From assembly GCA_001774945.1 (NCBI GenBank), contig MFBL01000015.1, forward strand, positions 529 to 64,528: 64,000 nt of DNA, in the 5' to 3' direction. Positions 526-41,505 of the stretch are shown here, one piece after another. A model generated the notes under the pieces. That model did no database searches, was not told the origin of the DNA, and was given only the letters and a program-made list of their open reading frames with translations. How positions within the stretch are numbered: position 1 is the first letter of the stretch; each line of letters begins with the position of its first letter. Both the position numbers and the translations under genes were made by a program. Origin of the DNA: Candidatus Curtissbacteria bacterium RIFCSPHIGHO2_12_FULL_41_17. GTDB lineage: Bacteria > Patescibacteriota > Microgenomatia > Curtissbacterales > GWA2-41-24.

Positions 526-720
526 TCAGCAGGGAGAGCAGAGCCTAAAAATGGTGGTTAGAAGGCTGATGGCAACGGCCAGGACAAGCAGTAAAAGAGA
601 TACTAAAATGGCCATTTTAAGGCCAAATTTTCTTTTTACAAACAGAAACCCTTTAACTATGCCAAATGCGATTAAGGCAATTGCCGCAAAACCGATGATG
701 GTATAGAGTGAATCTTCCAT
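526..720 (-). CDS. small hydrophobic membrane protein (hypothetical)
   Basis: 64-aa ORF with two clearly hydrophobic segments. Its ATG is formed by the last bases of the upstream repeat element (..GGAAGTTTATG). Confidence 0.35.
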   Translation of the reverse strand: MEDSLYTIIGFAAIALIAFGIVKGFLFVKRKFGLKMAILVSLLLLVLAVAISLLTTIFRLCSPC

Positions 721-865
721 AAACTTCCGAGGACTAAGAGTCCTCGGTATTCTCCTTAAAGTTTACATGAGCGAGCAGATACCTTAGTCCTCGCAAGTAT
801 GTATTCGCTTTCGCATTCATCCGTCGAGTCAGACTCGACGGTGTTCTGCGAGCGAATATAAAATT
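719..865 (-). repeat. ~150-nt multi-hairpin intergenic repeat, copy A
   Basis: The reverse complement is about nine-tenths identical to 11532-11680. It contains hairpins CCGTCGAGTC..GACTCGACGG and CCGAGGACT-CTT-AGTCCTCGG. It starts on the stop codon of the upstream co-oriented CDS. Confidence 0.85.
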
Positions 866-2703
866 TAAGAAGAAGTGCGTCTGCCGGAGTATGAACCTTG
901 ACAGTTAAGGCTGAAACTTTGTCCTTCAACCGCACCCCCCCCACTGACCGTGATATTGCCTTTGACTTGTGCTTGGCCGCCCGATTGGTAAAAAGCATAA
1001 CTTTGAACAGCTTGGACACTAATGCCGCTGGCATTAACGTTTATGACCATTCGAGCTTGCCCCGAAGAATCAATTGGATAGCTGCCTCCTTGGGCATCAA
1101 ACACCCGATTCCCCTTGACAGTGAAATTGGTTGCCGACGGCAACAGTCCCGATGAGTAGATACCCGGGATGTTACAGCCCACATTGGCATTAACACTGTA
1201 GGTTCCGTCCCATGTTGCTTGCGGCTTCTGAGTCGGTTGGACCTGAGAAGTCGGCTTGGGGCCTGATCCATCAGAAGGCTCAGGTTCTTTTTGGACAATT
1301 CTTGGAACTAATCCCCGCTCGGGGCAGCCGGGATTGCCGCCCATGTACCTGCCGCCGGAATAGGTTAGCATATCCCAGCAGGCGCCATTTTGGTATTTGC
1401 AGGTCCTGCCATCTTCCGTTGTCGGCAGTCTTTCTTTGACTCCGCCCGTTCCCCCGACAATCCCGCCTTTGCTAGTACATTCGTTGAAAAATGCTTGAAC
1501 GGCTGGCGGGTATTGCGGTTGATTCTTATCACCTTGAGTAATACCAACTCCTCCCATCGAGTAGCCGGAAGCGTCAATTAGCGGTTCTGCATCTTTCCAG
1601 GCATTGTCCCAACTTGTGCCTGCGTCTTTTTCTCCTACCACGTATCCAAGCGCGGACATGTAGACCCCCTGGGCCATTTTTTTGACATCGCCAGCGCAGA
1701 CGGTTTTTGAAATACAGGGGTTACGTCTTTTTAGAGTACCTACCGGAATTTTGCGCCCAAGGGCGTAAACGGGACTTATTTCAAGCGAGAGGAAAGAAGG
1801 ATTTGTTGACTGATCAATACCATCAATCCAGTAGCTTTGTACTTGCAGCTTGGCGGCGATATAGCGCATTGCTTGTTTATCTGTACGGGAAATAGCGTCA
1901 TCGCCGTAGTCTTTTAGGCTGGCGATTTGCTCAACGCTGGATTTAAGCAGGCCCTGTGCTTGGGGATTCGTCAACTTTAAAGTGAAGGGACCCGGATCTT
2001 GTCCTAAAGTGTCCCAGTTTTTTTGGTCTTTTGAGAATGTGACCATGGCGTCTGCCCAATCATTGGCGGCCAGTTGATAATCACTAAGCCTTGATGGACT
2101 ATTAAGGGCTGTTAATCTTTCGGAAACGGTTTGGGCATTTTCGCCAACTTTTTGGAGTGAATAAGGCGCAGATTTACCGGCGGCTATTGCATCACCAACT
2201 GATTTGTTGACAAACAGTTCGGTTAAGTTATCCTGGATAAGGTCAAGATTTGGTTTTATCTGTTTGTATTTAAAGTCGCTAATTTTCATGCCGAAAACAA
2301 CTATTAAAATAAGCAAAATCGCCAAAAAACCGATTGCATATTTGGGTTTCTTAACAAAAAAGCTAAAAATTTTGCCAAAGATATTGCCAGTTCCCCCTAA
2401 GGATTTAAAAAATACACGGGCTAGTTCATATAAAAGAAAAAGCCAGAGAATCCCGGCCCCAACGCCGAAAATTATGGCTATACTTTTATTTGATGGATCG
2501 GAACTTTCTGCCGCAAATGCACTCAAGAGGGAAAAAATAATTATTAAGATTATGTAGCTGGCAATTTTTCTGCCCCTCGAAGGCGGTTTTTTCTCTGTTT
2601 TTGGAGCCTCGCTAACTTTCGAGTCGAGATCAGCTACTTCTCCGCAGTAGGTGCAGAACTTAGCTTTTTCTGGTATTTTCTTTCCGCAGCTTGCGCAGTA
2701 CAT
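865..2703 (-). CDS. zinc-ribbon / transmembrane protein with large extracytoplasmic domain (hypothetical)
   Basis: 612-aa ORF. The N-terminus MYCASCGKKIPEKAKFCTYCG is a zinc-ribbon motif, followed by hydrophobic helices and a Gly/Ser/Gln-rich C-terminal region. No family recognised. Confidence 0.7.
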   Translation of the reverse strand: MYCASCGKKIPEKAKFCTYCGEVADLDSKVSEAPKTEKKPPSRGRKIASYIILIIIFSLLSAFAAESSDPSNKSIAIIFGVGAGILWLFLLYELARVFFKSLGGTGNIFGKIFSFFVKKPKYAIGFLAILLILIVVFGMKISDFKYKQIKPNLDLIQDNLTELFVNKSVGDAIAAGKSAPYSLQKVGENAQTVSERLTALNSPSRLSDYQLAANDWADAMVTFSKDQKNWDTLGQDPGPFTLKLTNPQAQGLLKSSVEQIASLKDYGDDAISRTDKQAMRYIAAKLQVQSYWIDGIDQSTNPSFLSLEISPVYALGRKIPVGTLKRRNPCISKTVCAGDVKKMAQGVYMSALGYVVGEKDAGTSWDNAWKDAEPLIDASGYSMGGVGITQGDKNQPQYPPAVQAFFNECTSKGGIVGGTGGVKERLPTTEDGRTCKYQNGACWDMLTYSGGRYMGGNPGCPERGLVPRIVQKEPEPSDGSGPKPTSQVQPTQKPQATWDGTYSVNANVGCNIPGIYSSGLLPSATNFTVKGNRVFDAQGGSYPIDSSGQARMVINVNASGISVQAVQSYAFYQSGGQAQVKGNITVSGGGAVEGQSFSLNCQGSYSGRRTSS

Positions 2704-7245: not shown

Positions 7246-9432
7246 ATGCAAAAAACAGTCCGTAAAGAAATTGATCTTGCTGGAAAGAAACTCATTTTAG
7301 AAAGCGGCGAACTTGCAACTCAGGCAAATGCCTCCGTTTTAGCAAGCTACGGAGAAACCGTACTTTTAGCTACTGCTGTTTCCAAAAAAGCACCACCTGA
7401 TATGGACTTTTTTCCGCTTGCCGTTGATTATGAGGAGAGGCTATATGCTGGCGGAAAAATATCCACCTCAAGATTTATCAAAAGAGAAGGAAGACCATCC
7501 GAGAAAGCTATTTTAACAGCAAGGTTGATAGACAGGTCTATAAGACCTCTTTTCCCAAAAGACTACCAAGCCGAGGTTCAGGTTGTAATAACCGTATTAT
7601 CATTCGATCAGGAAAACGATCCCGATATTGTTGCCCTAATTGCCGCTTCCTGTGCCCTTTCACTTTCCGACATTCCCTGGAACGGTCCGATATCTGGTCT
7701 TAGAATAGGCAGACAAAACGGAGGTTATATTTTAAACCCGACAGATGCTGAAAAAGATTTTTCCAGTCTTGATCTGATTTTGGCATCCAATAAAGAAGAA
7801 GTGGTAATGATTGAAGCCGGGGCAAATGAAGTCGATGAAGAGTCTGTTATTGGAGCAATTAAGTTTGGAATTGATCATGGAAAAAACGTTATTAAACTGA
7901 TTGAAGATTTAACCAAAGAAGCCGGGAGAGAAAAACAGAAATACGAAAGAGTAAGTCTTGGAGAAAATAAGGATAAAATAATTAGGGAATTTATCGCAAA
8001 AAACATTATTAGTGGTCTTGAAAAACCGGAAGTTTCTCAAGACGAAAATTGGTTTAGCTATCAATTAACAAAACTTGAAGAAGAATTTATCAAAGAAGAA
8101 GAGAAACAAATTACTTCAAAATGGCTAGCAGGCATTTTAGACGAGGCAGTTTCCGACTTCTTAAGGAAACGCATCTTGCAAGACAAAAAACGAATTGATG
8201 GCAGATCTCCGGACGATATCAGGCCAATAACCGCAAGAGTCGGTATTCTGCCAAGAACTCATGGATCCGGGCTTTTCCAAAGAGGTGATACTCAAGTCTT
8301 ATCGATTGTTACCTTAGCATCTCCCGCCTTGGAACAACTGATTGAAGGGATGACCGGCGAGGGGACCAAGAAGTATATGCATCATTACAATTTTCCGCCG
8401 TTTTCAACCGGCGAAGTAAGACGTCTTGGCCCGCCGGGAAGAAGAGAGATTGGCCACGGAGCTTTAGCGGAAAGGGCTCTCTTACCCGTTTTGCCTTCAC
8501 AAGAAGACTTTCCATACACACTGCGGGTAGTTTCAGAAGTCTTATCTTCTGCAGGTTCAACATCAATGGCTTCCGCTTGTGGTTCTACTTTGGCGTTAAT
8601 GGATGCTGGTGTTCCCATAAAAGAACCGGTGGCAGGAATTTCAATCGGCTTAATTTGCGACAAGAAAGACAGGTCAAAATATGTAACATTGGTAGACATA
8701 GCTTACCAGGAAGATTCCCAGGGAGATATGGATTTTAAAGTAGCCGGCACCAAAAACGGCATTACCGCTATTCAAATGGATATTAAGTTGGATGGAATTC
8801 CAACCAGTATTGCAAAAGAAGCGCTAATGAAGGCTAAAAAAGCAAGACTTTCTATTCTTGAAACTATCATAAAAACGATCCCTGCCGCTAGAGAAAAAAT
8901 TTCACCTCATGCTCCCACTGTTATTTTAATAAAGATAGACCCTGCAAAAATTGGCGCTGTTATTGGTTCCGGTGGGCGAACAATTAATAAAATCATCGCC
9001 GAGACGGGTGCGGCTATAGATATTGACGACCAGGGTATTGTAACGGTAAGCGGGAAAGACGTCCAAGCATGTCAGACTGCAGCCAAAATTATTGAAGGAA
9101 TTGTAAAAGAAGCCGAGGTCGGTGAAATTTATGAGGGTGCAGTCAAAAGAATTCTTCCATTTGGCGCCATGGTCGAAATATTGCCCGGCAAAGAAGGTCT
9201 AGTTCACATTTCCCAAATTGCCAACTATCGAGTTGCCAAAGTCGAAGACGAGTTGAAGATAGGACAAAAGGTAAAAGTTAGGGTAGCGGAAATTGATGAT
9301 CAGGGTAGGGTAAATCTCTCCATGAAGTTTCAAGACGAGAGGCAGGGTTTAGGAACCAAAAGCGATGATTTTCCCAAAAGGAATTTTAGAAAAAAATTCG
9401 ACTATGGACCAGGCAGAAAACATAAAAAGTAA
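7246..9432 (+). CDS. pnp: polyribonucleotide nucleotidyltransferase (PNPase)
   Basis: 728 aa with two RNase PH-like regions, a KH domain (GAVIGSGGRTINKI) and an S1 domain (GEIYEGAVKRILPFGAMVEILPGKEGLVHISQI). Confidence 0.95.
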   Translation: MQKTVRKEIDLAGKKLILESGELATQANASVLASYGETVLLATAVSKKAPPDMDFFPLAVDYEERLYAGGKISTSRFIKREGRPSEKAILTARLIDRSIRPLFPKDYQAEVQVVITVLSFDQENDPDIVALIAASCALSLSDIPWNGPISGLRIGRQNGGYILNPTDAEKDFSSLDLILASNKEEVVMIEAGANEVDEESVIGAIKFGIDHGKNVIKLIEDLTKEAGREKQKYERVSLGENKDKIIREFIAKNIISGLEKPEVSQDENWFSYQLTKLEEEFIKEEEKQITSKWLAGILDEAVSDFLRKRILQDKKRIDGRSPDDIRPITARVGILPRTHGSGLFQRGDTQVLSIVTLASPALEQLIEGMTGEGTKKYMHHYNFPPFSTGEVRRLGPPGRREIGHGALAERALLPVLPSQEDFPYTLRVVSEVLSSAGSTSMASACGSTLALMDAGVPIKEPVAGISIGLICDKKDRSKYVTLVDIAYQEDSQGDMDFKVAGTKNGITAIQMDIKLDGIPTSIAKEALMKAKKARLSILETIIKTIPAAREKISPHAPTVILIKIDPAKIGAVIGSGGRTINKIIAETGAAIDIDDQGIVTVSGKDVQACQTAAKIIEGIVKEAEVGEIYEGAVKRILPFGAMVEILPGKEGLVHISQIANYRVAKVEDELKIGQKVKVRVAEIDDQGRVNLSMKFQDERQGLGTKSDDFPKRNFRKKFDYGPGRKHKK

Positions 9433-11513: not shown

Positions 11514-11531
11514 AGTGACCTATTCGGAGGA

Positions 11532-11680
11532 GAGTTTATATTCGCTCGCAGAATACCATCGAGTCAGACTCGACGGATGAATGCGAGAGCGAATACATAC
11601 TTCCGAGGATTGGAAGTATTCTGCTCGCTCATGTAAACTTGAAGAACAATACCGAGGACTCTTAGTCCTCGGAAGTTTAT
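11532..11680 (+). repeat. ~150-nt multi-hairpin intergenic repeat, copy B
   Basis: Same element as 719-865 in inverted orientation. Hairpins lie at 11556-11576, 11598-11618 and 11652-11672, with enclosing stems TATTCGCTCGC/GCGAGAGCGAATA and TAAACTT/AAGTTTA. Confidence 0.85.
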
Positions 11681-11778
11681 AATTTTCTAAAACTCTCCGG
11701 AGAAAGGGTTAGTTAAAACTAACCCTATAGCATTTATAGTCCGCTTGATGTAAAATAAAATTAGCTTCTGGAAAAATT

Positions 11779-14565: not shown

Positions 14566-14657
14566 CCCAAATTTCAAAGAAATTTGGAAAGGAAAAATGC
14601 GAGTGCGCTAAAAGTCCACAATTGTGGACGATTAACAGCACGAGCAATTTTGACGCT
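14566..14657 (+). repeat. conserved structured 5' leader element, copy 1 (shared with tuf)
   Basis: Aligns with 40232-40320. Hairpin CCAAATTTCAAAGAAATTTGG is identical, the second hairpin covaries (GTCCACAATTGTGGAC versus GTTCTCAATAGAAC), and the tail AGCACGAGCAATTTTGACG is identical and abuts the ATG. Confidence 0.8.
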
Positions 14658-26135: not shown

Positions 26136-27239
26136 TTGAATATCCCAGTGAATAAAATACTCCAAATCGGTCCACCCTTTATTATTATCGCCGCACTACT
26201 TTGGAGTCTTGACGGACTTTTAAGAAGAAGCCTTTTTGTGTTACCCCCGGCTCTTATTGTGTTTTGGGAACATGTTTTAGGTGCAGTTATATTAATACCA
26301 TTTGTCCTTTTTTTAGGTCTGAAACTAGGCAAAATGACCAAGAAAGAATGGCTGGCAATTGTTTTTGTAAGCCTTTTCTCTGGAGCCCTCGGAACTATTT
26401 TTTATACGGCGGCTCTTGGTAAAGTTAATTATATCCAGTTTTCGGTTGTAGCTATGCTGCAGCAGCTTCAGCCAATCTGGACCATTACAACCGCAGCTAT
26501 TATCCTAAAAGAAAAATTGACAGGCAATTTTTTAAGGTGGGCAGCATTGGCACTTATTGCTTCTTATTTTGTTACCTTTAGGGATTTAAAAGTTAATCTT
26601 GAAAGCGGCAGCCAAACAATAGTTGCTGCAGGATTTGCTCTTGCGGCTGGGATGATGTGGGGTTCATCAACCGCATTTTCCAAAGTGGTCTTAAAGCAAG
26701 TTTCGTTTATAACGGCCACTTTTTTAAGGTTTATGGCATTGGCACTTATTGCTTCTTATTTTGTTACCTTTAGGGATTTAAAAGTTAATCTTGAAAGCGG
26801 CAGCCAAACAATAGTTGCTGCAGGATTTGCTCTTGCGGCTGGGATGATGTGGGGTTCATCAACCGCATTTTCCAAAGTGGTCTTAAAGCAAGTTTCGTTT
26901 ATAACGGCCACTTTTTTAAGGTTTATGATAGCACCTATATTTGCCCTGCTTTTTTTAGTTGGTTCAAATAAGGGCAGCAGTCTTTTTGCAATCACATTGC
27001 CTCAGGCATTTACACTGCTTGTTATTACTCTCACAACCGGAATGGTTGCTCTTCTTATTTATTATTTTGGCTTAAAAAAAACACCGGCTAGAGTTAGCAC
27101 AATTTTAGAACTTGTCTGGCCTGCTTCGGCAATTTTTATTGACTATGTTTATTTCAAAAAAACTTTATCGACGACTCAGCTGTTGGGGGTTTTTGTATTA
27201 CTTTTTGCAATTTACCAAGTGTCTAAATTCAAAAAGTGA
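26136..27239 (+). CDS. EamA/DMT-family transporter carrying an internal 64-aa tandem duplication
   Basis: Polytopic membrane protein with EamA-like repeats. The segment ALALIASYFVTF...ATFLRFM occurs twice, identically. Confidence 0.8.
   Translation: MNIPVNKILQIGPPFIIIAALLWSLDGLLRRSLFVLPPALIVFWEHVLGAVILIPFVLFLGLKLGKMTKKEWLAIVFVSLFSGALGTIFYTAALGKVNYIQFSVVAMLQQLQPIWTITTAAIILKEKLTGNFLRWAALALIASYFVTFRDLKVNLESGSQTIVAAGFALAAGMMWGSSTAFSKVVLKQVSFITATFLRFMALALIASYFVTFRDLKVNLESGSQTIVAAGFALAAGMMWGSSTAFSKVVLKQVSFITATFLRFMIAPIFALLFLVGSNKGSSLFAITLPQAFTLLVITLTTGMVALLIYYFGLKKTPARVSTILELVWPASAIFIDYVYFKKTLSTTQLLGVFVLLFAIYQVSKFKK
26544..26927 (+). repeat. perfect 2 x 192-bp in-frame tandem duplication inside the DMT gene
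   Basis: 26544-26735 equals 26736-26927 base for base. The junctions share the microhomology TTTTTTAAGGT (26528, 26720, 26912). Confidence 0.9.
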
Positions 27240-34861: not shown

Positions 34862-35344
34862 ATGCCTACTATTAACCAACTTATCAGAAAAGGCAGAAAA
34901 CCAAAAATTAAAAGAGTGAGGGCCACGGCGCTTAGACGTGCCTTTAATTCTCTTAAAAACCGATACGTATACTATCCGGCAAGCCAGAAAAGAGGGGTGT
35001 GTGTGGTTGTCAAAACCATGACTCCCAAAAAACCTAATTCTGCTCTAAGAAAAGTAGCTAGAGTCCGTCTTTCCAATAAGCAGGAAATTACCGCTTATAT
35101 TCCGGGCATTGGTCATGAACTTGCAGAACACTCAGTTGTTTTAATACGGGGTGGTCGCGTCAGAGATCTGCCCGGAGTAAAATATCATGTTATTCGCGGG
35201 AAATATGATACTACTGGAGTAGTTGGCCGAAAGCAAGCAAGATCGCTGTATGGAACCAAAAAATCAGGTGCGGTTACCGGTGCCCAGGCAGCAGCTACAG
35301 TTGGTGCCACCGCAGCCGCAGCGCAGCCACCACCAGAAACTTAA
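34862..35344 (+). CDS. rpsL: 30S ribosomal protein S12 with Ala/Pro-rich C-terminal tail
   Basis: [51 protein letters not shown]. About 25 extra C-terminal residues ([25 protein letters not shown]). Confidence 0.95.
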
Positions 35345-35352
35345 GTATGAAA

Positions 35353-35405
35353 ACTTATCACTTATCACTCATCACTTATCACTTATCACTGCGACCGAAG
35401 GGAGC
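35353..35405 (+). repeat. heptamer array (ACTTATC x5) plus conserved CGACCGAAGGGAGC box upstream of rpsG
   Basis: Units lie at 35353, 35360, 35367 (ACTCATC), 35374 and 35381. The box at 35392-35405 contains the SD. The same architecture occurs upstream of rpsC. Confidence 0.85.
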
Positions 35406-35408
35406 ATC

Positions 35409-35906
35409 ATGCCCAGAGCAGGAAAGGTAGAAAAAAAACAAATTGCTCCGGATCCCCTTTACCAAAGTTCGCTTGTTGCTAAACTAATCAATAAAGTAAT
35501 GGTCAGCGGCAATAAGTCTCTCGCCCAGAGAGTAGTTTATGATGCGCTCGAAAGTTTAAAATCTGGCGGGCAAGATCCAGTCAAAACCCTAGATAAGGCA
35601 GTTGAGAATATTACGCCAAGAATGGAGGTTAGACCAAGAAGGGTTGGCGGTGCATCTTATATGGTTCCCATGGAAGTCAGGGGATCAAGACGGCTTTCAT
35701 TGGCAATTTCATGGCTGGTTAATGCCGCCAGAAGCAGGAAAGCTTCGGACATTACTCCCAAACCTAAGAATAAGCCCTTAATTATTGCCAAGTTGTCCCA
35801 AGAAATACTGCAAGCATCAGAGAATACCGGCAAGGCAGTCGCCAAAAAAGACGAAATGCACCGCATAGCCGAAGCGAACAAAGCTTTCGCCCATTTCAGA
35901 TGGTAA
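35409..35906 (+). CDS. rpsG: 30S ribosomal protein S7
   Basis: MPRAGKVEKKQIAPDPLYQS.LVAKLINKVM..GNKS and ...ANKAFAHFRW. The ATG at 35409 is preceded by AAGGGAGC. The ORF-track start at 35223 lies inside rpsL. Confidence 0.95.
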   Translation: MPRAGKVEKKQIAPDPLYQSSLVAKLINKVMVSGNKSLAQRVVYDALESLKSGGQDPVKTLDKAVENITPRMEVRPRRVGGASYMVPMEVRGSRRLSLAISWLVNAARSRKASDITPKPKNKPLIIAKLSQEILQASENTGKAVAKKDEMHRIAEANKAFAHFRW

Positions 35907-36117
35907 GCCGGAGTTTACACTGAGCTTGTCGAAGTGCGCATTCCCGCTGGTAATGTGCTCAGCCTTGCGGTCCTCGTCCTTCGTTAAACTCAGGACTGCG
36001 GGCCTAAAAGCTTTCGCCCACTTCCGCTGGTAGCGAAATGTGGTTTGCCGCCTTGCGATAGCTCCGCACTACGCGCGTAGTAGCTATCTAAAGGCGTTTG
36101 CACATTTCCGGTGGTAA
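35907..36117 (+). repeat. array of displaced rpsG 3'-end copies separated by GC-rich palindromic inserts
   Basis: KAFAHFRW-stop is re-encoded at 36007-36033 and 36091-36117 with synonymous differences only. A degenerate copy (AHSRW-stop) lies at 35936-35953. Confidence 0.85.
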
Positions 36118-36122
36118 TTTCC

Positions 36123-37067
36123 CTACAACGAGAATAAATCTAGCACTTGCTTTTTTCCTGTCATGGCTAAATCAAATATCTTTTCCCGATCTTGGGAAAT
36201 TCTTGAGATGGGCATCTCGGAAGGAGCAATAATCCCAATATTTATTGAATCTCCATGCAATCCAATTAGCTCTGCCGCTCGCGAATATTGTTTATGTCTT
36301 GCTAACATAGCAGTTCTAAATTCGGAGGAAAACTTACGCATATATACACTTGTAAGTAAACGTTCTAATAAACTGGCCCCATTTGCTCGCTCGCCTACAG
36401 TATTATTCAAAACCACCAATATATCTGTACACCCTTCCTGTATTGCTAAATCGATTGGAATACCATTCCCTATAGAACCATCACTGTACTTTTTTCCATT
36501 AATACTTATGGTACGGTTATAAACAATAGGAAATGCCGAGGAAGCGATGACTACTTTGACAATATCACACTCCTCTTTCACATCTATAAACTCACTTTTG
36601 CCCGTTTGGGCATCCGTAACGACAATAAAAAAACTCGAACGGGATGACCTAATTGTTTCCTGATCAAGCGGTTTTGTCTTTCGCATTATGTGTTCAGCAT
36701 AATCAAGGTCTAAAACACGCCTTAGACGCCTAACATCGATGAATCTTCTGTCCACTAAATCTTCATGCCAAAGCGAAGCTCCTAACTCTGTCTGTTTAGC
36801 AAGAAAATAAGCAAGGTCAGCAGCCCCAGACGAAACACCGACAACAACATCAAAAGTGTCATGGAAACCCAATTGTTCTAGGCCAACAAGTACTCCGGCA
36901 CCAAATGCTCCACGCACCCCACCGCCACCCATTACTAATGCGGTTTTAATCCTCTCGTGTGTATTGTCACCTTGATCAAGCAGTCTCTTTTTCTCAAGTA
37001 AATTTCTCACGAGCGTTGAATTTCTCGCTGATTCACCTTCTAAAACTTTGGAGCGTAATCTTTCCAT
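36123..37067 (-). CDS. patatin-like phospholipase
   Basis: Oxyanion motif GGGGVRGAFGAGVL, nucleophile elbow GVSSGA (GxSxG), and the catalytic Asp context DGSIGNGIP. Confidence 0.85.
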   Translation of the reverse strand: MERLRSKVLEGESARNSTLVRNLLEKKRLLDQGDNTHERIKTALVMGGGGVRGAFGAGVLVGLEQLGFHDTFDVVVGVSSGAADLAYFLAKQTELGASLWHEDLVDRRFIDVRRLRRVLDLDYAEHIMRKTKPLDQETIRSSRSSFFIVVTDAQTGKSEFIDVKEECDIVKVVIASSAFPIVYNRTISINGKKYSDGSIGNGIPIDLAIQEGCTDILVVLNNTVGERANGASLLERLLTSVYMRKFSSEFRTAMLARHKQYSRAAELIGLHGDSINIGIIAPSEMPISRISQDREKIFDLAMTGKKQVLDLFSL

Positions 37068-37287
37068 GGCTAAAATTGTAGCAAAAATAGTTCTTTAAGA
37101 GAAAAATCTTCTCTCTTGCATACTCATTTAACTTAAGATATAATTCCCGACTAGTTTGTACTTATCTGCCGGTCTTCGACCCTGAGGGCTCAGACCCGAA
37201 TGGGCAGGCAGGCGCCTGTCAAACGCCTAATTTAGCTTCCGCCTGGCTAAATCCAAAGAAGAATTTTTATATTTGGGAAATGATATA

Positions 37288-37316
37288 TTGACTTTTGGCA
37301 GGGTTTTATTGATAAA
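37288..37316 (+). promoter_or_regulatory. candidate promoter TTGACT-17-GATAAA
   Basis: TTGACT at 37288-37293, a 17-nt spacer, and GATAAA at 37311-37316, upstream of the ORF at 37328. Confidence 0.3.
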
Positions 37317-37327
37317 AGAGTAAGATC

Positions 37328-37606
37328 ATGAAAATAATTTCATTATCAAAGGCACAAAAACTGAAAAGCCTTAGAAAAAAACTCACGGAGCTTGAGGAAG
37401 TTAAGCTAAAAGAGGCTTTGGCTAAGTATGGGGAAGCCTACCAGGAGTCAGGAGCGGCCTGGCAGGAAAATGCCGCCTGGGAGCTGGCAGACGAAGAAGT
37501 GTCGGTTATTCGGGCAATGATTTCGGAAATAAAAAGAGAAATCACCGGTTTGGAACATCCTCTTCCTACTACTTCCATCCCGCTCACTATTAAAAAACAA
37601 AAATAA
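37328..37606 (+). CDS. small coiled-coil protein (hypothetical)
   Basis: 92-aa ORF of helical, charged sequence. No family recognised. Confidence 0.45.
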   Translation: MKIISLSKAQKLKSLRKKLTELEEVKLKEALAKYGEAYQESGAAWQENAAWELADEEVSVIRAMISEIKREITGLEHPLPTTSIPLTIKKQK

Positions 37607-37642
37607 TCCAAATTAGAAAAATATATGACGCAAACTGCTGAT

Positions 37643-37791
37643 CAATTTATTTTCGCTTCGCGAAAACCGTGGATTATTAATCCTCGGATGAAGCGAAGGG
37701 AAAACATACTTCCAAGGAAGTTTGGAGCCTAGACCAAAGACGAATGATATGATAGGTGAAAACCGAGGGTTCTTAACTCTCGGAAGTTTAT
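37643..37791 (+). repeat. ~150-nt multi-hairpin intergenic repeat, diverged copy C
   Basis: Collinear with copy B, with the same stem positions but different stem sequences (TTCGCTTC/GAAGCGAA, CCGTGGATT/AATCCTCGG, ACTTCC/GGAAGT, CCGAGGGTT/AACTCTCGG). The terminal CGGAAGTTTAT is identical. Confidence 0.7.
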
Positions 37792-37833
37792 TTTGCAACA
37801 CAAAAAGACATATTTAGCTTGGAGGAAAAAATA

Positions 37834-39975
37834 ATGGCCGAAAAACAAGCCAGACTTTATTCGCTGGACAGAATAAGAAATATAGGCATCATTGCTCATA
37901 TCGACGCGGGAAAAACGACCACTACCGAGAGAATCCTTTTTTACACAGGTAGGACCTATAAACTCGGAAATATCGATGAAGGCACCACCGTTACCGACTG
38001 GATGGCTCAGGAAAAAGAAAGGGGAATTACGATTGTATCGGCTGCCGTAACAACATTTTGGAAACCCAAAGATGGCCCGTTTGCCAACATTGACACACGT
38101 ATAAACATTATTGACACCCCGGGGCATGTCGATTTTACTGCCGAGGTTGAAAGATCACTGCGTGTTCTAGATGGAGGAGTCACCGTTCTTGATGCAGAAG
38201 AGGGGGTCCAGTCACAATCGGAAACAGTCTGGCGCCAAGCCGACAAATATAAAGTTCCCCGTATTTGTTTCGTTAATAAGATGGATAAAATCGGCGCAGA
38301 TTTTTTCGCAACGCTCTCCTCGATCCGCAAAAAATTACAGGCACCGGCAGTTGCCTACAATTTACCAATCGGCAAGGAAAATGATTTTAAGGGAGTTATC
38401 GATTTACTAACACAAAAGGCCTATATTTGGGAAGAAGAGGCTGTCAAAAAAGGAGGAATGGATTTTGTCAAGGTACCCATCCCAAGTGAATTGCTTGCTG
38501 AAACCGAAAAACATAGAGCCCACTTAATTGAAAAAATTGCAGAATGTGACGATAGTCTTGTGGAAAAATACCTTAAGGGTGAAGAATTGGGAATAGACGA
38601 ACTTAAATCAGCACTTCGACGTGCAGTCATCGAATATAAAATAGTTCCCGTGCTTGCAGGTTCCAGTCTACGCAATAAAGGTGTTCAAATGCTTCTTGAC
38701 GCAACTGTAGAATACTTACCTTCTCCTTTAGATATAGAAACGGTAGAGGGTATTAATCCTAAAACAGGTGAGAAGGAGATCCGCAAACAAGTAGTCGAAG
38801 CTCCATTTTGTGCCTTGGCATTTAAAGTCCAGATCGATCCGCATGTCGGTAAATTAAATTTCATCAGAATTTATTCGGGAACACTAAAATCCGGTACTTC
38901 TGTTTTGAATACGACAAAAAGGGAACATGAAAGAGTCGGCAGAATTTTACTAATGCATGCCAATACCAGAGAAGAGATTGCCGAAGCATACGCAGGAGAA
39001 ATTGTGGCAGTTGTCGGACTTAAATCAACCACCACAGGAGACACGCTCTGCGCTGAAAATTCTCCGATTATTTTAGAATCGATTTCGTTTCCGGACCCGG
39101 TCATTTCACTGGCAATTGAGCCAAGTACAAAGGCTGATCAGGAGAAACTTGGTTACGCTTTGGGCCGGCTTTCCGAGGAAGATCCGACGTTTAAGATTAA
39201 AGGTGATCCGGAAACCGGGCAAACAATTATTTCCGGAATGGGAGAACTGCATCTGGAAATCCTGGTTGACAGAATGAAGAGAGAGTTTGCAGTCGCTGCC
39301 AAAGTCGGCAGTCCGCAAGTTGCTTACAAGGAAACCATTAGAGAAACAGGCAGAGGTGAAGGTAAATATATTCGGCAGTCCGGTGGCAGAGGCCAATACG
39401 GGCACTGTTTTTTGAGGGTTGAGCCTAATCCTCGCGGTGAGGGTTATCAATTCGTTTCCGAGATTAGAGGTGGCGCTATTCCGCAAGAGTTTATTTCCTC
39501 AGTAGAAAAAGGAGTTCGCGAAAAAATGGAAACCGGGGTTTTAGCTGGATATCCGATGGTCGATATAAAGGTAGCAGTTTATGATGGTACTTATCATGAC
39601 GTTGACTCTTCCGATATTGCTTTTAAAATCGCCGGCTCTCTTGCTTTGGAAGAAGCCGTCAAAAATGCCAGTCTTGCGCTTTTGGAACCGATCATGAAAG
39701 TGGAAGTGACCATTCCCGAAGAATTCATGGGTGATGTAATTGGGGATTTATCTGCCAAGCGTGCTCAAATACTTTCAAGCGAACATCGGGCAAACAGCGT
39801 GATTATTACAGCCCTTGTGCCGCTTGCAGAGATGTCCGGCTATGTTACAACTCTTAGGTCTATGACTCAAGGGAGAGGATCAGCATATATGGAACCGTCA
39901 CATTACGAAGAAGTTCCCCAGAGTATAGCAGACAAAATCGTAGCAAGGGCCAAAGGTGAGGTAAAAGAAAGTTAG
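37834..39975 (+). CDS. fusA: elongation factor G
   Basis: [40 protein letters not shown]. The ATG at 37834 is preceded by GGAGG. The ORF-track TTG at 37819 would include the SD. Confidence 0.95.
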
Positions 39976-40231: not shown

Positions 40232-40320
40232 CCCAAATTTCAAAGAAATTTGGAGAGGAAAAATTTGAGTGCGTTTAATGTTCTCAATAGAACATGAATA
40301 GCACGAGCAATTTTGACGAC
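40232..40320 (+). repeat. conserved structured 5' leader element, copy 2 (tuf)
   Basis: See 14566-14657. An SD-like GGAGAGG is followed by a short uORF whose TGA overlaps an in-frame ATG at 40294. Confidence 0.8.
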
Positions 40321-41505
40321 ATGGCAGCAGAAAAATTTGAACGAACAAAACCACACGTAAATATTGGCACGATTGGCCATGTTGATCATGGTAAAACTAC
40401 GCTGACCAGTGCTATTACTCAGGTCCTATCCAAAAAAGGTCTGGCTCAGGCGAAATCCTTTGATCAGATAGATAATGCCCCGGAAGAGAAACAAAGAGGA
40501 ATTACTATTAATATTACTCATGTGGAGTACGAAACGGAAAAGCGTCACTATGCCCACATTGATGCCCCCGGCCATGCCGACTACATCAAAAACATGATTA
40601 CAGGTGCCGCCCAAATGGACGGTGCAATTCTGGTTGTAAGCGCTCCGGACGGGCCGATGCCGCAGACGAGAGAGCATGTTCTTTTGGCCAGACAGGTAAA
40701 CGTTCCGGCAATCGTAGTTTTTCTAAACAAAACGGATATGGTTCAGGATGCAGAACTTTTGGATCTTGTGGAACTTGAGGTGCGCGAACTTCTGGATAAA
40801 TATCAGTTTGATGGAAAAAATGCGACAATCATTCGCGGTTCGGCACTTAAAGCGATTGAAGGAGATGCACAAGCCGTTAAAGCGATTGAAGACTTAATGG
40901 CCGCAGTTGATGAAAAAATCCCCACTCCCGCAAGGGATTTAGACAAACCTTTCCTGATGCCGGTTGAAGATGTCTTTTCCATAAAAGGCCGAGGGACTGT
41001 TGTTACAGGCAGAGTTGAACGGGGCGTTATAAAAGTCAATGAGGAGATCGAAATTGTCGGAATTAGACCTACAAAAAAAACTATTGTAACAGGAGTAGAA
41101 ATGTTTAGAAAAGAGCTAGACCAGGGACAAGCCGGTGACAATATCGGCGTACTACTTCGAGGGATTGAAAAAGATGACGTTGAAAGAGGGCAGGTTTTGG
41201 CAAAGCCCGGCTCGACAACACCGCATACCGAATTCGAGGCAGAGGTGTATATCCTAACTAAAGAAGAAGGCGGACGACACACCCCCTTCTTTACCGGTTA
41301 TAGACCCCAGTTTTATATAAGAACGACCGATGTTACCGGAGAAGCAACTCTTCCCGAAGGAACAGAAATGGTTATGCCGGGAGACAATATTAAAATGAAA
41401 GTTAAACTTATCGAGCCGGTTGCTATGGAAGAAGGACTTAGATTTGCCATCCGCGAGGGTGGCCACACAGTAGGCGCCGGCGTAGTCAGCAAGATAATTG
41501 CGTAA
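40321..41505 (+). CDS. tuf: elongation factor Tu
   Basis: [41 protein letters not shown]. The start is placed at the canonical EF-Tu N-terminus. The alternative ATG at 40294 would add MNSTSNFDD. Confidence 0.95.

Follow-up and report, generated by a model that had tools for sequence, protein, structure and literature searches.

Integrative elements can use the 3′ terminus of a tRNA or housekeeping gene as their insertion site and bring a substitute gene end with them, as exemplified by the streptococcal integrative and conjugative elements (ICE) and integrative and mobilizable elements (IME) that reside in rpsI, rplL, rpmG or fda, and by their deletion derivatives, the cis-mobilizable elements (CIMEs). 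Here we analyse an interval from a Candidatus Curtissbacteria bacterium (Patescibacteria, or candidate phyla radiation, CPR) in which a gene for a patatin-like lipid acyl hydrolase lies within rpsL-rpsG-fusA-tuf, one of the most conserved gene strings in bacteria. The interval covers positions 35907-37833 of a 64-kb housekeeping stretch, hereafter the window, in which the gene order is rpoB, rpoC, rpsL, rpsG, the interval under study, fusA, tuf and rpsJ. It begins with short modules that end in copies of the rpsG 3′ end, followed by the patatin gene on the opposite strand, an open reading frame (ORF) of 92 amino acids (aa) and several smaller elements. With ICE, IME and CIMEs the locus shares displaced gene-end copies downstream of an intact gene, their tandem accretion and the fact that they encode the correct peptide; unlike those elements, it has no integrase, its units measure only 47-118 nt, its cargo is not bracketed by them, and the hairpin of one module type, termed Y, covaries.

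Many hotspots of accessory genes are devoid of mobile genetic elements (MGEs), and their content is turned over by recombination at core genes on their flanks, especially in transformable species (PMC5635113). The present locus resembles the MGE-free hotspots described by Oliveira et al. 2017 (PMC5635113) in that the same conserved flanks enclose different accessory content across genomes, and in that no integrase or transposase is found at the window's site, with recA present in the window. It differs from them in being located inside a normally inviolate string, rpsL-rpsG-fusA-tuf, and in being decorated with hairpins that mimic the 3′ end of the gene to its left. We regard the patatin as ordinary accessory cargo in such an MGE-free hotspot; the protein itself is already deposited, as a hypothetical protein in GenBank and as a PNPLA-domain protein in UniRef.

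An initial annotation of this DNA had described the str operon as being split by an insertion of ~1.9 kb. While all the blocks that it listed are indeed found where it had placed them, the size of the insertion has to be revised, since the 92-aa ORF, like its promoter and leader, is native to the site. The interval 35907-37833 is a mosaic of separate pieces rather than a single insertion, its variable or foreign parts being the rpsG-end modules, the patatin cassette, a palindromic mini-element and one copy, copy C, of a dispersed structured element. We favour, as the probable explanation, that this mosaic sits at the boundary between an rpsL-rpsG unit and a 92-aa/fusA/tuf unit, and that the stand-alone patatin cassette is accessory cargo in a hotspot.

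The patatin cassette and the rpsG junction

We compared 83 rpsG loci of other species, 21 from one-genome-per-species GTDB contigs and 62 from metagenomes, in which rpoC, rpsL, rpsG, the patatin, the 92-aa ORF, fusA and tuf were placed by tblastn. The rpsG orthologues in these loci are 51-84% identical to that of the window, and all come from metagenome-assembled genomes (MAGs) of Curtissbacteria or Patescibacteria; the 92-aa and patatin proteins of the window are themselves deposited under accessions of Curtissbacteria RIFCSP MAGs. A patatin at the rpsG junction is found in none of the 83 loci, which supports the earlier proposal of an insertion, here a lineage-specific one. In nine assemblies of the window's own species, the gene is present and 100% identical. 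The segment 35860-37340 (1481 nt) is likewise 100% identical across these nine assemblies, which stem from different samples, and the arrangement is therefore not an assembly artefact. Locus L102, from the same sampling project, presents the empty site: after rpsG come one Y module, ~60 nt and then the promoter and leader known from the window. The 92-aa proteins of L102 and the window are 83% identical.

The patatin gene (36123-37067, minus strand; Pfam PF01734) encodes a single-domain protein of 314 aa, a putative serine-aspartate lipid acyl hydrolase. At the nucleotide level, its homology to patatin genes elsewhere amounts to 67% over ~820 nt and reaches 20-40 nt 5′ of the start codon (37086-37107). 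This 5′ flank (37068-37110, minus strand) contains an extended -10 element (TGCTACAAT, with the -10 hexamer at 37075-37080) only 7 nt before the ATG, and no Shine-Dalgarno sequence is found upstream of the ATG, so that the mRNA is probably leaderless. Homologues in unrelated contexts (L001, L025 and L026) have the same TGnTAyAAT motif 7-8 nt before their ATG, also without a Shine-Dalgarno sequence. Since both the homology and this motif extend past the start codon in other contexts, the inserted unit runs from ~36118 to ~37110. This cassette of ~1.0 kb comprises one ORF together with an extended -10 promoter of its own and is oriented antisense to the ribosomal genes, with the last rpsG-end module on one side and the promoter native to the 92-aa gene on the other. 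The stop codons of the patatin gene and of the last rpsG copy are adjacent, as had been noted, although the gap between them is 5 nt rather than 6 nt (36115-36117 to 36123-36125). The proposed check for a foreign composition gave no such signal: with a GC content of 0.407 and a GC3 of 0.324, the patatin gene equals rpoB and rpoC, and its codon usage is like that of the neighbouring core genes. This suggests a donor of similar composition or a long residence.

The assignment as a patatin, made initially from GGGGVRG, GVSSG and DG motifs, is well founded. The Pfam Patatin profile is matched over its full length by residues 44-209 with 73.8 bits (cut-off 27.7), and G48-G49-G50-x-R52-G53, G77-x-S79-x-G81 and D196-G197 are invariant or nearly so in 11 members of the subfamily. 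An AF2 model of the protein (pLDDT 91, pTM 0.92) was compared with the PDB using Foldseek, and the 28 top-ranked matches are all patatin-type lipases, including CapV, CapE, PlpD and plant patatin, with template modelling (TM) scores of 0.55-0.64, as well as iPLA2-beta and VipD. Judged from motifs, profile, model and fold comparison, the enzyme looks catalytically intact. No N-terminal hydrophobic stretch is visible and hence no signal peptide, and the protein is most likely cytosolic. The protein has a weak C-terminal match to DUF6363 (22 bits). Its subfamily comprises 201 clusters at 50% identity (E<=1e-30), nearly all of them single-domain proteins of ~300-340 aa, and has a conserved N-terminal helical extension. 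We found no literature specific to patatins in Patescibacteria.

The rpsG/92-aa junction is a lineage-wide hotspot for accessory DNA in Curtissbacteria. The distance between the two genes spans from 1 to 2044 nt among the loci, and at least eight different cargo sets are found between them; related genomes thus hold different cargo at the junction, as expected from the integration hotspot that had been postulated. The cargo includes orphan ORFs of 148-486 aa (among them ones of 486, 193 and 151 aa), an extra 244-aa ORF, a sigma-70 factor and the structured element of ~165 nt described below. Plus-strand cargo ORFs begin 10-18 nt past an rpsG stop codon. A PADLOC search with eight of the relatives' cargo ORFs yielded nothing except a sigma-domain match of the sigma factor to MzaA. 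In one subclade, the junction harbours a gene for a 216-aa Y1_Tnp protein (RAYT/IS200-like) flanked by perfect 19-nt inverted repeats (AAGGGACGGTCCTTGAAAA; L015 7241-7991, L016 6991-7744, L017 7244-7994, and L059, L060, L062 and L070). Between this gene and rpsG lies an orphan ORF that differs from genome to genome, with three different ones (148-218 aa) adjoining the transposase gene; the flanking repeat is absent from the 64-kb window.

Accessory genes also abound in the sister species (GCA_964562855.1), whose rpsG and 92-aa proteins are both 84% identical to those of the window. Its rpsG contig (L004) ends 227 nt after rpsG, just beyond modules Y and X, while its 92-aa gene is immediately preceded by a block of accessory genes of at least 10 kb (L108 1-9703, contig CAZLVB010000004.1). 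This block encodes two HigBA (HigB/HTH) pairs, HicAB, MazG, RadC, a PD-(D/E)XK nuclease, DUF4926/DUF6883, TspO and DUF2283. In a further relative, the next junction of the string is occupied: an insert of 1.1 kb between fusA and tuf (L007 3922-5108) encodes a YafQ-like toxin and a putative antitoxin; a direct repeat of the fusA 3′ end, 89 nt long and with 8 differences that are all synonymous, flanks the insert. The fusA end of this relative repeats the gene-end-replacing pattern seen at rpsG.

The native 92-aa gene and the smaller elements

The 92-aa ORF (37328-37606, plus strand) encodes a conserved, Curtissbacteria-specific protein that is predicted to fold as a helical hairpin, and is found between rpsG and fusA in 76 of the 83 loci. 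Of the seven loci without it, five are on contigs that stop short of the gene; the remaining two, in which fusA abuts rpsG, belong to the relatives farthest from the window (51-52% rpsG identity). The promoter and leader of the gene extend over 37116-37327 on the plus strand, with TTGCAT at 37116-37121, a 17-nt spacer and TATAAT at 37139-37144; the sequence at 37139-37157 reads TATAAT followed by TCCCGCTTAGTTT. Upstream of the 92-aa gene, the window contains a promoter-like motif, ATAATTCCCGCTTAGTTT (at 37140), which also precedes the gene, once per locus, in 8 of the 21 loci of the genome collection; the leader segment 37216-37324 is 84% identical to that of the empty-site relative L102. Given the presence of the ORF in most loci, the recurrence of the motif and the homology of the leader, 37116-37606 is native to the lineage. 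What had been taken for one repeat-containing divergent promoter region, 37068-37327, is accordingly to be divided: a divergent pair of promoters is present, but that of the patatin came with the cassette, and 37116-37327 belongs natively to the 92-aa gene. The str operon of this lineage carries an extra gene, and in the window's clade it is split into two transcription units.

A protein search returned 240 homologues of the 92-aa protein, ~80-100 aa in length, those with a named source all being from Curtissbacteria or Patescibacteria; the motif W-x-ENAAWELADEE is invariant in the family. AF2, run with 30 homologues, predicts a helical hairpin with helices at residues 3-43 and 49-76 (pLDDT 69), in agreement with the coiled-coil character initially ascribed to the ORF. 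Profile searches gave 18.5 bits for GreA_GreB_N (cut-off 24.5) and 19.9 bits for TIGR01462 (cut-off 139), a profile search of the PDB with the 92-aa family gave no significant match, and Foldseek retrieved generic helical hairpins with E>0.5, among them Gfh1 at an rmsd of 1.5 Å. The protein shares with the N-terminal coiled coil of GreA and Gfh1 its helical hairpin and an invariant acidic tip, Q-E-N-A-A-W-x-x-A-x-E-E, which resembles the Gre tip, but it is without their C-terminal globular (FKBP-like) domain. As a single hairpin with profile scores below the family thresholds and no C-terminal domain, it was not accepted as a member of the GreA/GreB family. From the model we infer a coiled-coil probe of the Gre, SerRS-arm or a similar type, and the fixed place of its gene between those for S7 and EF-G points to a possible function in transcription or translation.

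The interval contains two further small insertions. Within the leader lies a palindromic, GC-rich mini-insertion of 46-47 nt (37166-37212, without assigned strand), which is absent from the empty site of L102. It is 98% identical to an opposite-strand copy in the accessory block of the sister species (L106/L108; L108 about 9087-9132), whereas the surrounding genes of the two species are only ~78% identical; to judge from this, it behaves like a tiny mobile palindrome. The GC-rich string quoted in the initial annotation belongs to this element; it sits at 37171-37212 and is unique in the window. Copy C of the dispersed structured element, ~165 nt long, was correctly recognized at 37640-37800 (plus strand; terminator-like hairpin at 37763-37783). 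Two other copies are found at 702-868 (minus strand) and 11530-11698 (plus strand); changes in the hairpins are compensatory between copies, the 3′ hairpin is terminator-like, and two of the three are placed, in the same orientation, upstream of ftsK and fusA. In relatives, the element is located upstream of rpsL (L024, L073 and L078-L080) or after rpsG (L005, L030 and L032), and it is also present in L071; it is absent from the 92-aa/fusA junction of the sister species and has no match in Rfam. Copy C is therefore an independent insertion of an element whose placement varies.

On the right, the interval is bounded by fusA (37834-39975, plus strand), which encodes EF-G and constitutes a conserved flank with ~80% amino-acid identity to relatives. 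Its start is most likely the ATG at 37834, which is preceded by GGAGG; the longest ORF begins with a TTG at 37819. It is followed by tuf (40294-41505). A 72-nt segment upstream of tuf (40232-40303) recurs, with 79% identity, upstream of an ORF at 14622 (14566-14637); it contains a CCAAATTTC/GAAATTTGG hairpin and may represent a common promoter or leader. To the left of the interval, rpsL (34862-35344) encodes 160 aa, and its 3′ part (35270-35344) specifies an unusual Ala/Pro-rich C-terminal tail; the spacer between rpsL and rpsG (35345-35408) is filled by a tandem heptamer run, (ACTTATC)n. Further upstream in the window, an ORF for an EamA-family transporter (26136-27239) holds a 192-nt tandem duplication in perfect register (26520-26903), the two units being 96% identical.

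Hairpin modules ending in copies of the rpsG terminus

The left flank of the hotspot, rpsG (35409-35906, plus strand; Pfam Ribosomal_S7, E 1.7e-51), encodes ribosomal protein S7 and ends in 27 nt that specify KAFAHFRW-stop. Three in-register units follow between rpsG and the patatin gene, all on the plus strand, which substantiates the array of displaced rpsG ends reported initially. Module X (35907-35953) is a 47-nt unit that ends, at 35953, in a degenerate copy of the rpsG end, AHSRW-stop. Module Y1 (35954-36033) is a hairpin unit that ends in a KAFAHFRW-stop copy with 4 nucleotide differences, and module Y2 (36034-36117) is a long imperfect hairpin whose 3′ arm is such a copy, with 6 differences; all these differences are synonymous. 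A degenerate pattern for AFAHFRW-stop has 3 matches in the 64 kb, compared to 0.01 expected by chance; the degenerate end of module X is a fourth. None of the other long ORFs of the window is followed by displaced copies of its 3′ end, and no rpsG-end copies are found between 36118 and 37833. All copies hence lie on one side of the patatin gene, and they are therefore not its att sites in a simple sense.

The units are GC-rich (0.545, compared to 0.40 for the window). Y2 has a predicted fold energy of -38.8 kcal/mol (z -2.74), and in an alignment of the Y hairpin from 11 lineages, 80% of cells are paired, as opposed to 28-46% when the partner was slid; 11 of 23 pairs have changed on both sides, and the covariation score exceeds those of all 500 shuffles. 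Modules of this kind recur in many relatives, covering at least 15 other lineages, and represent four or more unrelated families, X, Y, Z and W. Y1 is 92% identical to the sole module of L102, module X has a homologue in the sister species (L004 6577-6646), and the order of modules is shuffled between the window's species and this sister. A profile of Y has full-length matches directly after rpsG only, on the plus strand; neither the rest of the window nor the sister species' locus of 20 kb has any. When the displaced copies of the various genomes are compared with the functional end, 39 codon changes are synonymous and a single one is not; the chance of all-synonymous change under random substitution is <=7e-4 for every copy.

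The rpsG-end modules are the truly odd part of the region, and one worth following up. An in-frame read-through extension of rpsG was rejected, as a consistent frame is not seen among the module lengths (47, 80, 84, 78, 114, 118, 102 and 110 nt) and in-frame stops are present in some modules; REPINs were rejected as well, since the modules are not dispersed and are found only after rpsG. Rfam searches of the whole window at the gathering threshold, and of 35850-37850 at E<=5, returned nothing relevant for modules or leader, and nothing specific on rpsG as an integration site was found in the literature. Candidate models for the modules are the serial integration of small elements bearing a gene end, a conserved 3′ hairpin that is kept coding-like by gene conversion, and a folded recombination site resembling attC. 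It is conceivable, if rather improbable, that they constitute a previously undescribed element, serving either as attC-like capture sites without a recombinase in cis or as a translation-sensing RNA switch. Just as improbably, the element would then be a covarying hairpin of ~80-110 nt with a 3′ arm that mimics the rpsG end and a 5′ arm for which the genuine end and the mimic are alternative pairing partners.

Origin and possible function of the patatin

Sequence comparison shows that an ancestor of the window's species acquired one self-contained cassette of ~1.0 kb. We propose that this happened without an element-encoded recombinase, by host homologous recombination. DNA taken up from another Patescibacterium would have recombined at the strongly conserved flanks or at the repeats of the rpsG end. 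Several observations speak against the favoured explanation. The donor was not found, the best homologue of the patatin being 60% identical. Flank identity to the sister species is flat in a sliding window, at ~0.77-0.80, with no breakpoints seen between these very divergent lineages, and a search for mosaic identity of the flanks against the sister species and L102 was uninformative. Cargo always starts right after a functional or displaced rpsG end, which would also fit a site-specific mechanism. As regards the nature of the cargo, the top fold matches of the patatin are the effectors CapV and CapE of cyclic oligonucleotide-based antiphage signalling systems (CBASS), marginally ahead of PlpD and plant patatin; its homologues repeatedly adjoin toxin-antitoxin modules, which fits a conflict role as well as it does mere residence in flexible regions; and the physiological role that we assign to it is pure inference.

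A site-specific origin would make the stacked rpsG-end modules the scars or att sites of small integrative elements for which the last ~27 nt of rpsG are the target and which supply a new end to the gene. The modules being in register, each ending in a KAFAHFRW-stop copy in the window as in the other lineages, speaks for it, as does the almost exclusively synonymous change, expected if each copy once served as the working gene end. The number of unrelated module families and their shuffled order relative to the sister species point in the same direction, as do loci L015 and L017, which both have module W and diverge from the displaced copy onward, cargo included, and the repeats of the fusA end around the L007 insert. 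However, no recombinase is found in the window or the cargo-bearing loci, save for the Y1 transposase in one subclade; units this small are implausible as autonomous or circular elements; with all copies on one side of the patatin gene, the right end is not bounded by a repeat; and the Y module, found only after rpsG and with covariation, fits a conserved local structure at least as well. We consider such scars unlikely, and find it equally doubtful that the patatin is what remains of the cargo of such an element, its recombinase having been lost or acting in trans. Far less probable still is that the patatin was ancestral at the site and was lost from all sampled relatives, or that the assembly is chimeric. 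The core-like GC, GC3 and codon usage would suit an ancestral gene, but its loss would be needed in all ~60 distinct lineages sampled, including the two closest, the closest patatin homologues sit in unrelated contexts, and the assemblies from different samples agree across both junctions. The comparative data have effectively refuted this explanation.

The patatin had also been considered as possible cargo of a defence or toxin system, with the 92-aa ORF as its tiny partner. The latter idea has to be abandoned, as the ORF is native, divergent from the patatin gene and conserved independently of it, being present in the 76 loci without a patatin. As to the former, CapV and CapE give the best Foldseek matches (E 4e-11 to 8e-9) and resemble the window's protein in being cytosolic bacterial patatins with a single domain, a length of ~300-340 aa and the same dyad of catalytic residues, but their identity to it is 16%, the TM scores of 0.54-0.64 are no better than for PlpD or plant patatin, so that the fold likeness is generic, and no cyclase is adjacent here. 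The patatin reaches 27.6 bits with the NCBIfam equivalog CBASS_lipase (NF041079; cut-off 200), 16.7 with the anti-phage phospholipase model DS2_1 (cut-off 400) and 20-29 bits with PADLOC effector models; PADLOC found nothing for the 92-aa ORF. The neighbourhoods of six homologues (P0001, P0002, P0003, P0006, P0008 and P0010; 34-60% identity) were inspected on nine contigs. All six are stand-alone genes, next to PIN/MazE; HigB/HTH and ychF; Fic; gatCAB/murT; a peptidase and HigB/HTH; or a GluRS or radical-SAM gene. Neither among the scanned window ORFs nor beside these homologues is there a cyclase (CD-NTase) or other partner, and a sensor or antitoxin partner is likewise missing from the locus and from the homologues' surroundings. 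The toxin-antitoxin neighbours mark residence in flexible regions and identify no function. No minus-strand ORF of at least 20 aa is adjacent to and co-oriented with the patatin gene, as a type II toxin-antitoxin pair would entail. Pfam scans of the window ORFs gave housekeeping families (including nusA, infB, pnp, ftsK, alaS, rpoBC, ribosomal proteins, recA, recX and rny) or no match, and no recombinase or transposase, in line with the initial remark that no cyclase, sensor or recombinase is nearby.

On these grounds, with sub-threshold models and no cyclase in any context examined, the patatin was rejected as a component of CBASS or of a recognised defence operon. It might still serve, on its own or as an orphan, in phage defence or abortive infection, as an effector of the CapV/CapE type that destroys the membrane upon a signal whose source is encoded elsewhere in the genome. 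In favour of this stand the best structural matches, which are to cGAMP- and cUA-activated CapV and CapE, the weak PADLOC matches to phospholipase effectors, the HigB/HTH, PIN/MazE and Fic genes often found near the homologues in flexible regions, and, in the sister species, the toxin-antitoxin-rich block that immediately precedes the 92-aa gene. Weighed against the model scores, the generic fold likeness, the absence of a CD-NTase or partner from the window and the homologues' neighbourhoods, and the fact that phage and plasmid collections contain distant patatin matches alone (<31% identity), it strikes us as improbable. Bacterial patatin-like proteins of the housekeeping or orphan kind, such as E. 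coli RssA/YchK and the patatin domain of PlpD, are likewise encoded by stand-alone genes that have no partner in an operon; PlpD is the only sequence match of the window's patatin in the PDB, and RssA its top NCBIfam match. At 33 bits against a cut-off of 272, however, the window's patatin is not an orthologue of RssA, and it forms a modest subfamily of its own.

As accessory cargo, the patatin could be a cytoplasmic acyl hydrolase that acts on phospholipids or lysophospholipids. CPR bacteria without lipid synthesis are described as recycling host lipids and as enriched in lysolipids, in a passage of PMC8080830 that cites Probst 2020, and an acyl hydrolase of this specificity would suit organisms as portrayed there. 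The enzyme may remodel lipids scavenged from the host, or it may be a potentially self-toxic membrane hydrolase that is restrained by convergent transcription from the strongly expressed rpsL-rpsG genes. The latter run towards the patatin gene from a distance of 5 nt with no classical terminator in between, and their transcription may dampen its expression.

In this CPR lineage, then, one of the most conserved gene strings of bacteria serves as a tolerated landing pad. The analysis corrects the tempting over-reading of a patatin and a small neighbour as a defence module; what it brings to light instead is a stand-alone patatin subfamily that would circulate in the flexible gene pool of lipid-scavenging Patescibacteria, and a conserved mini-protein with a Gre-tip-like hairpin, encoded between S7 and EF-G, which merits a separate study. 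Should the rpsG-end modules be attC-like, the folded sites would nucleate the capture of promoter-bearing cassettes, such as that of the patatin, inside the str operon; should they act as an RNA switch, the synthesis of S7 would be coupled to the expression of whatever lies downstream.

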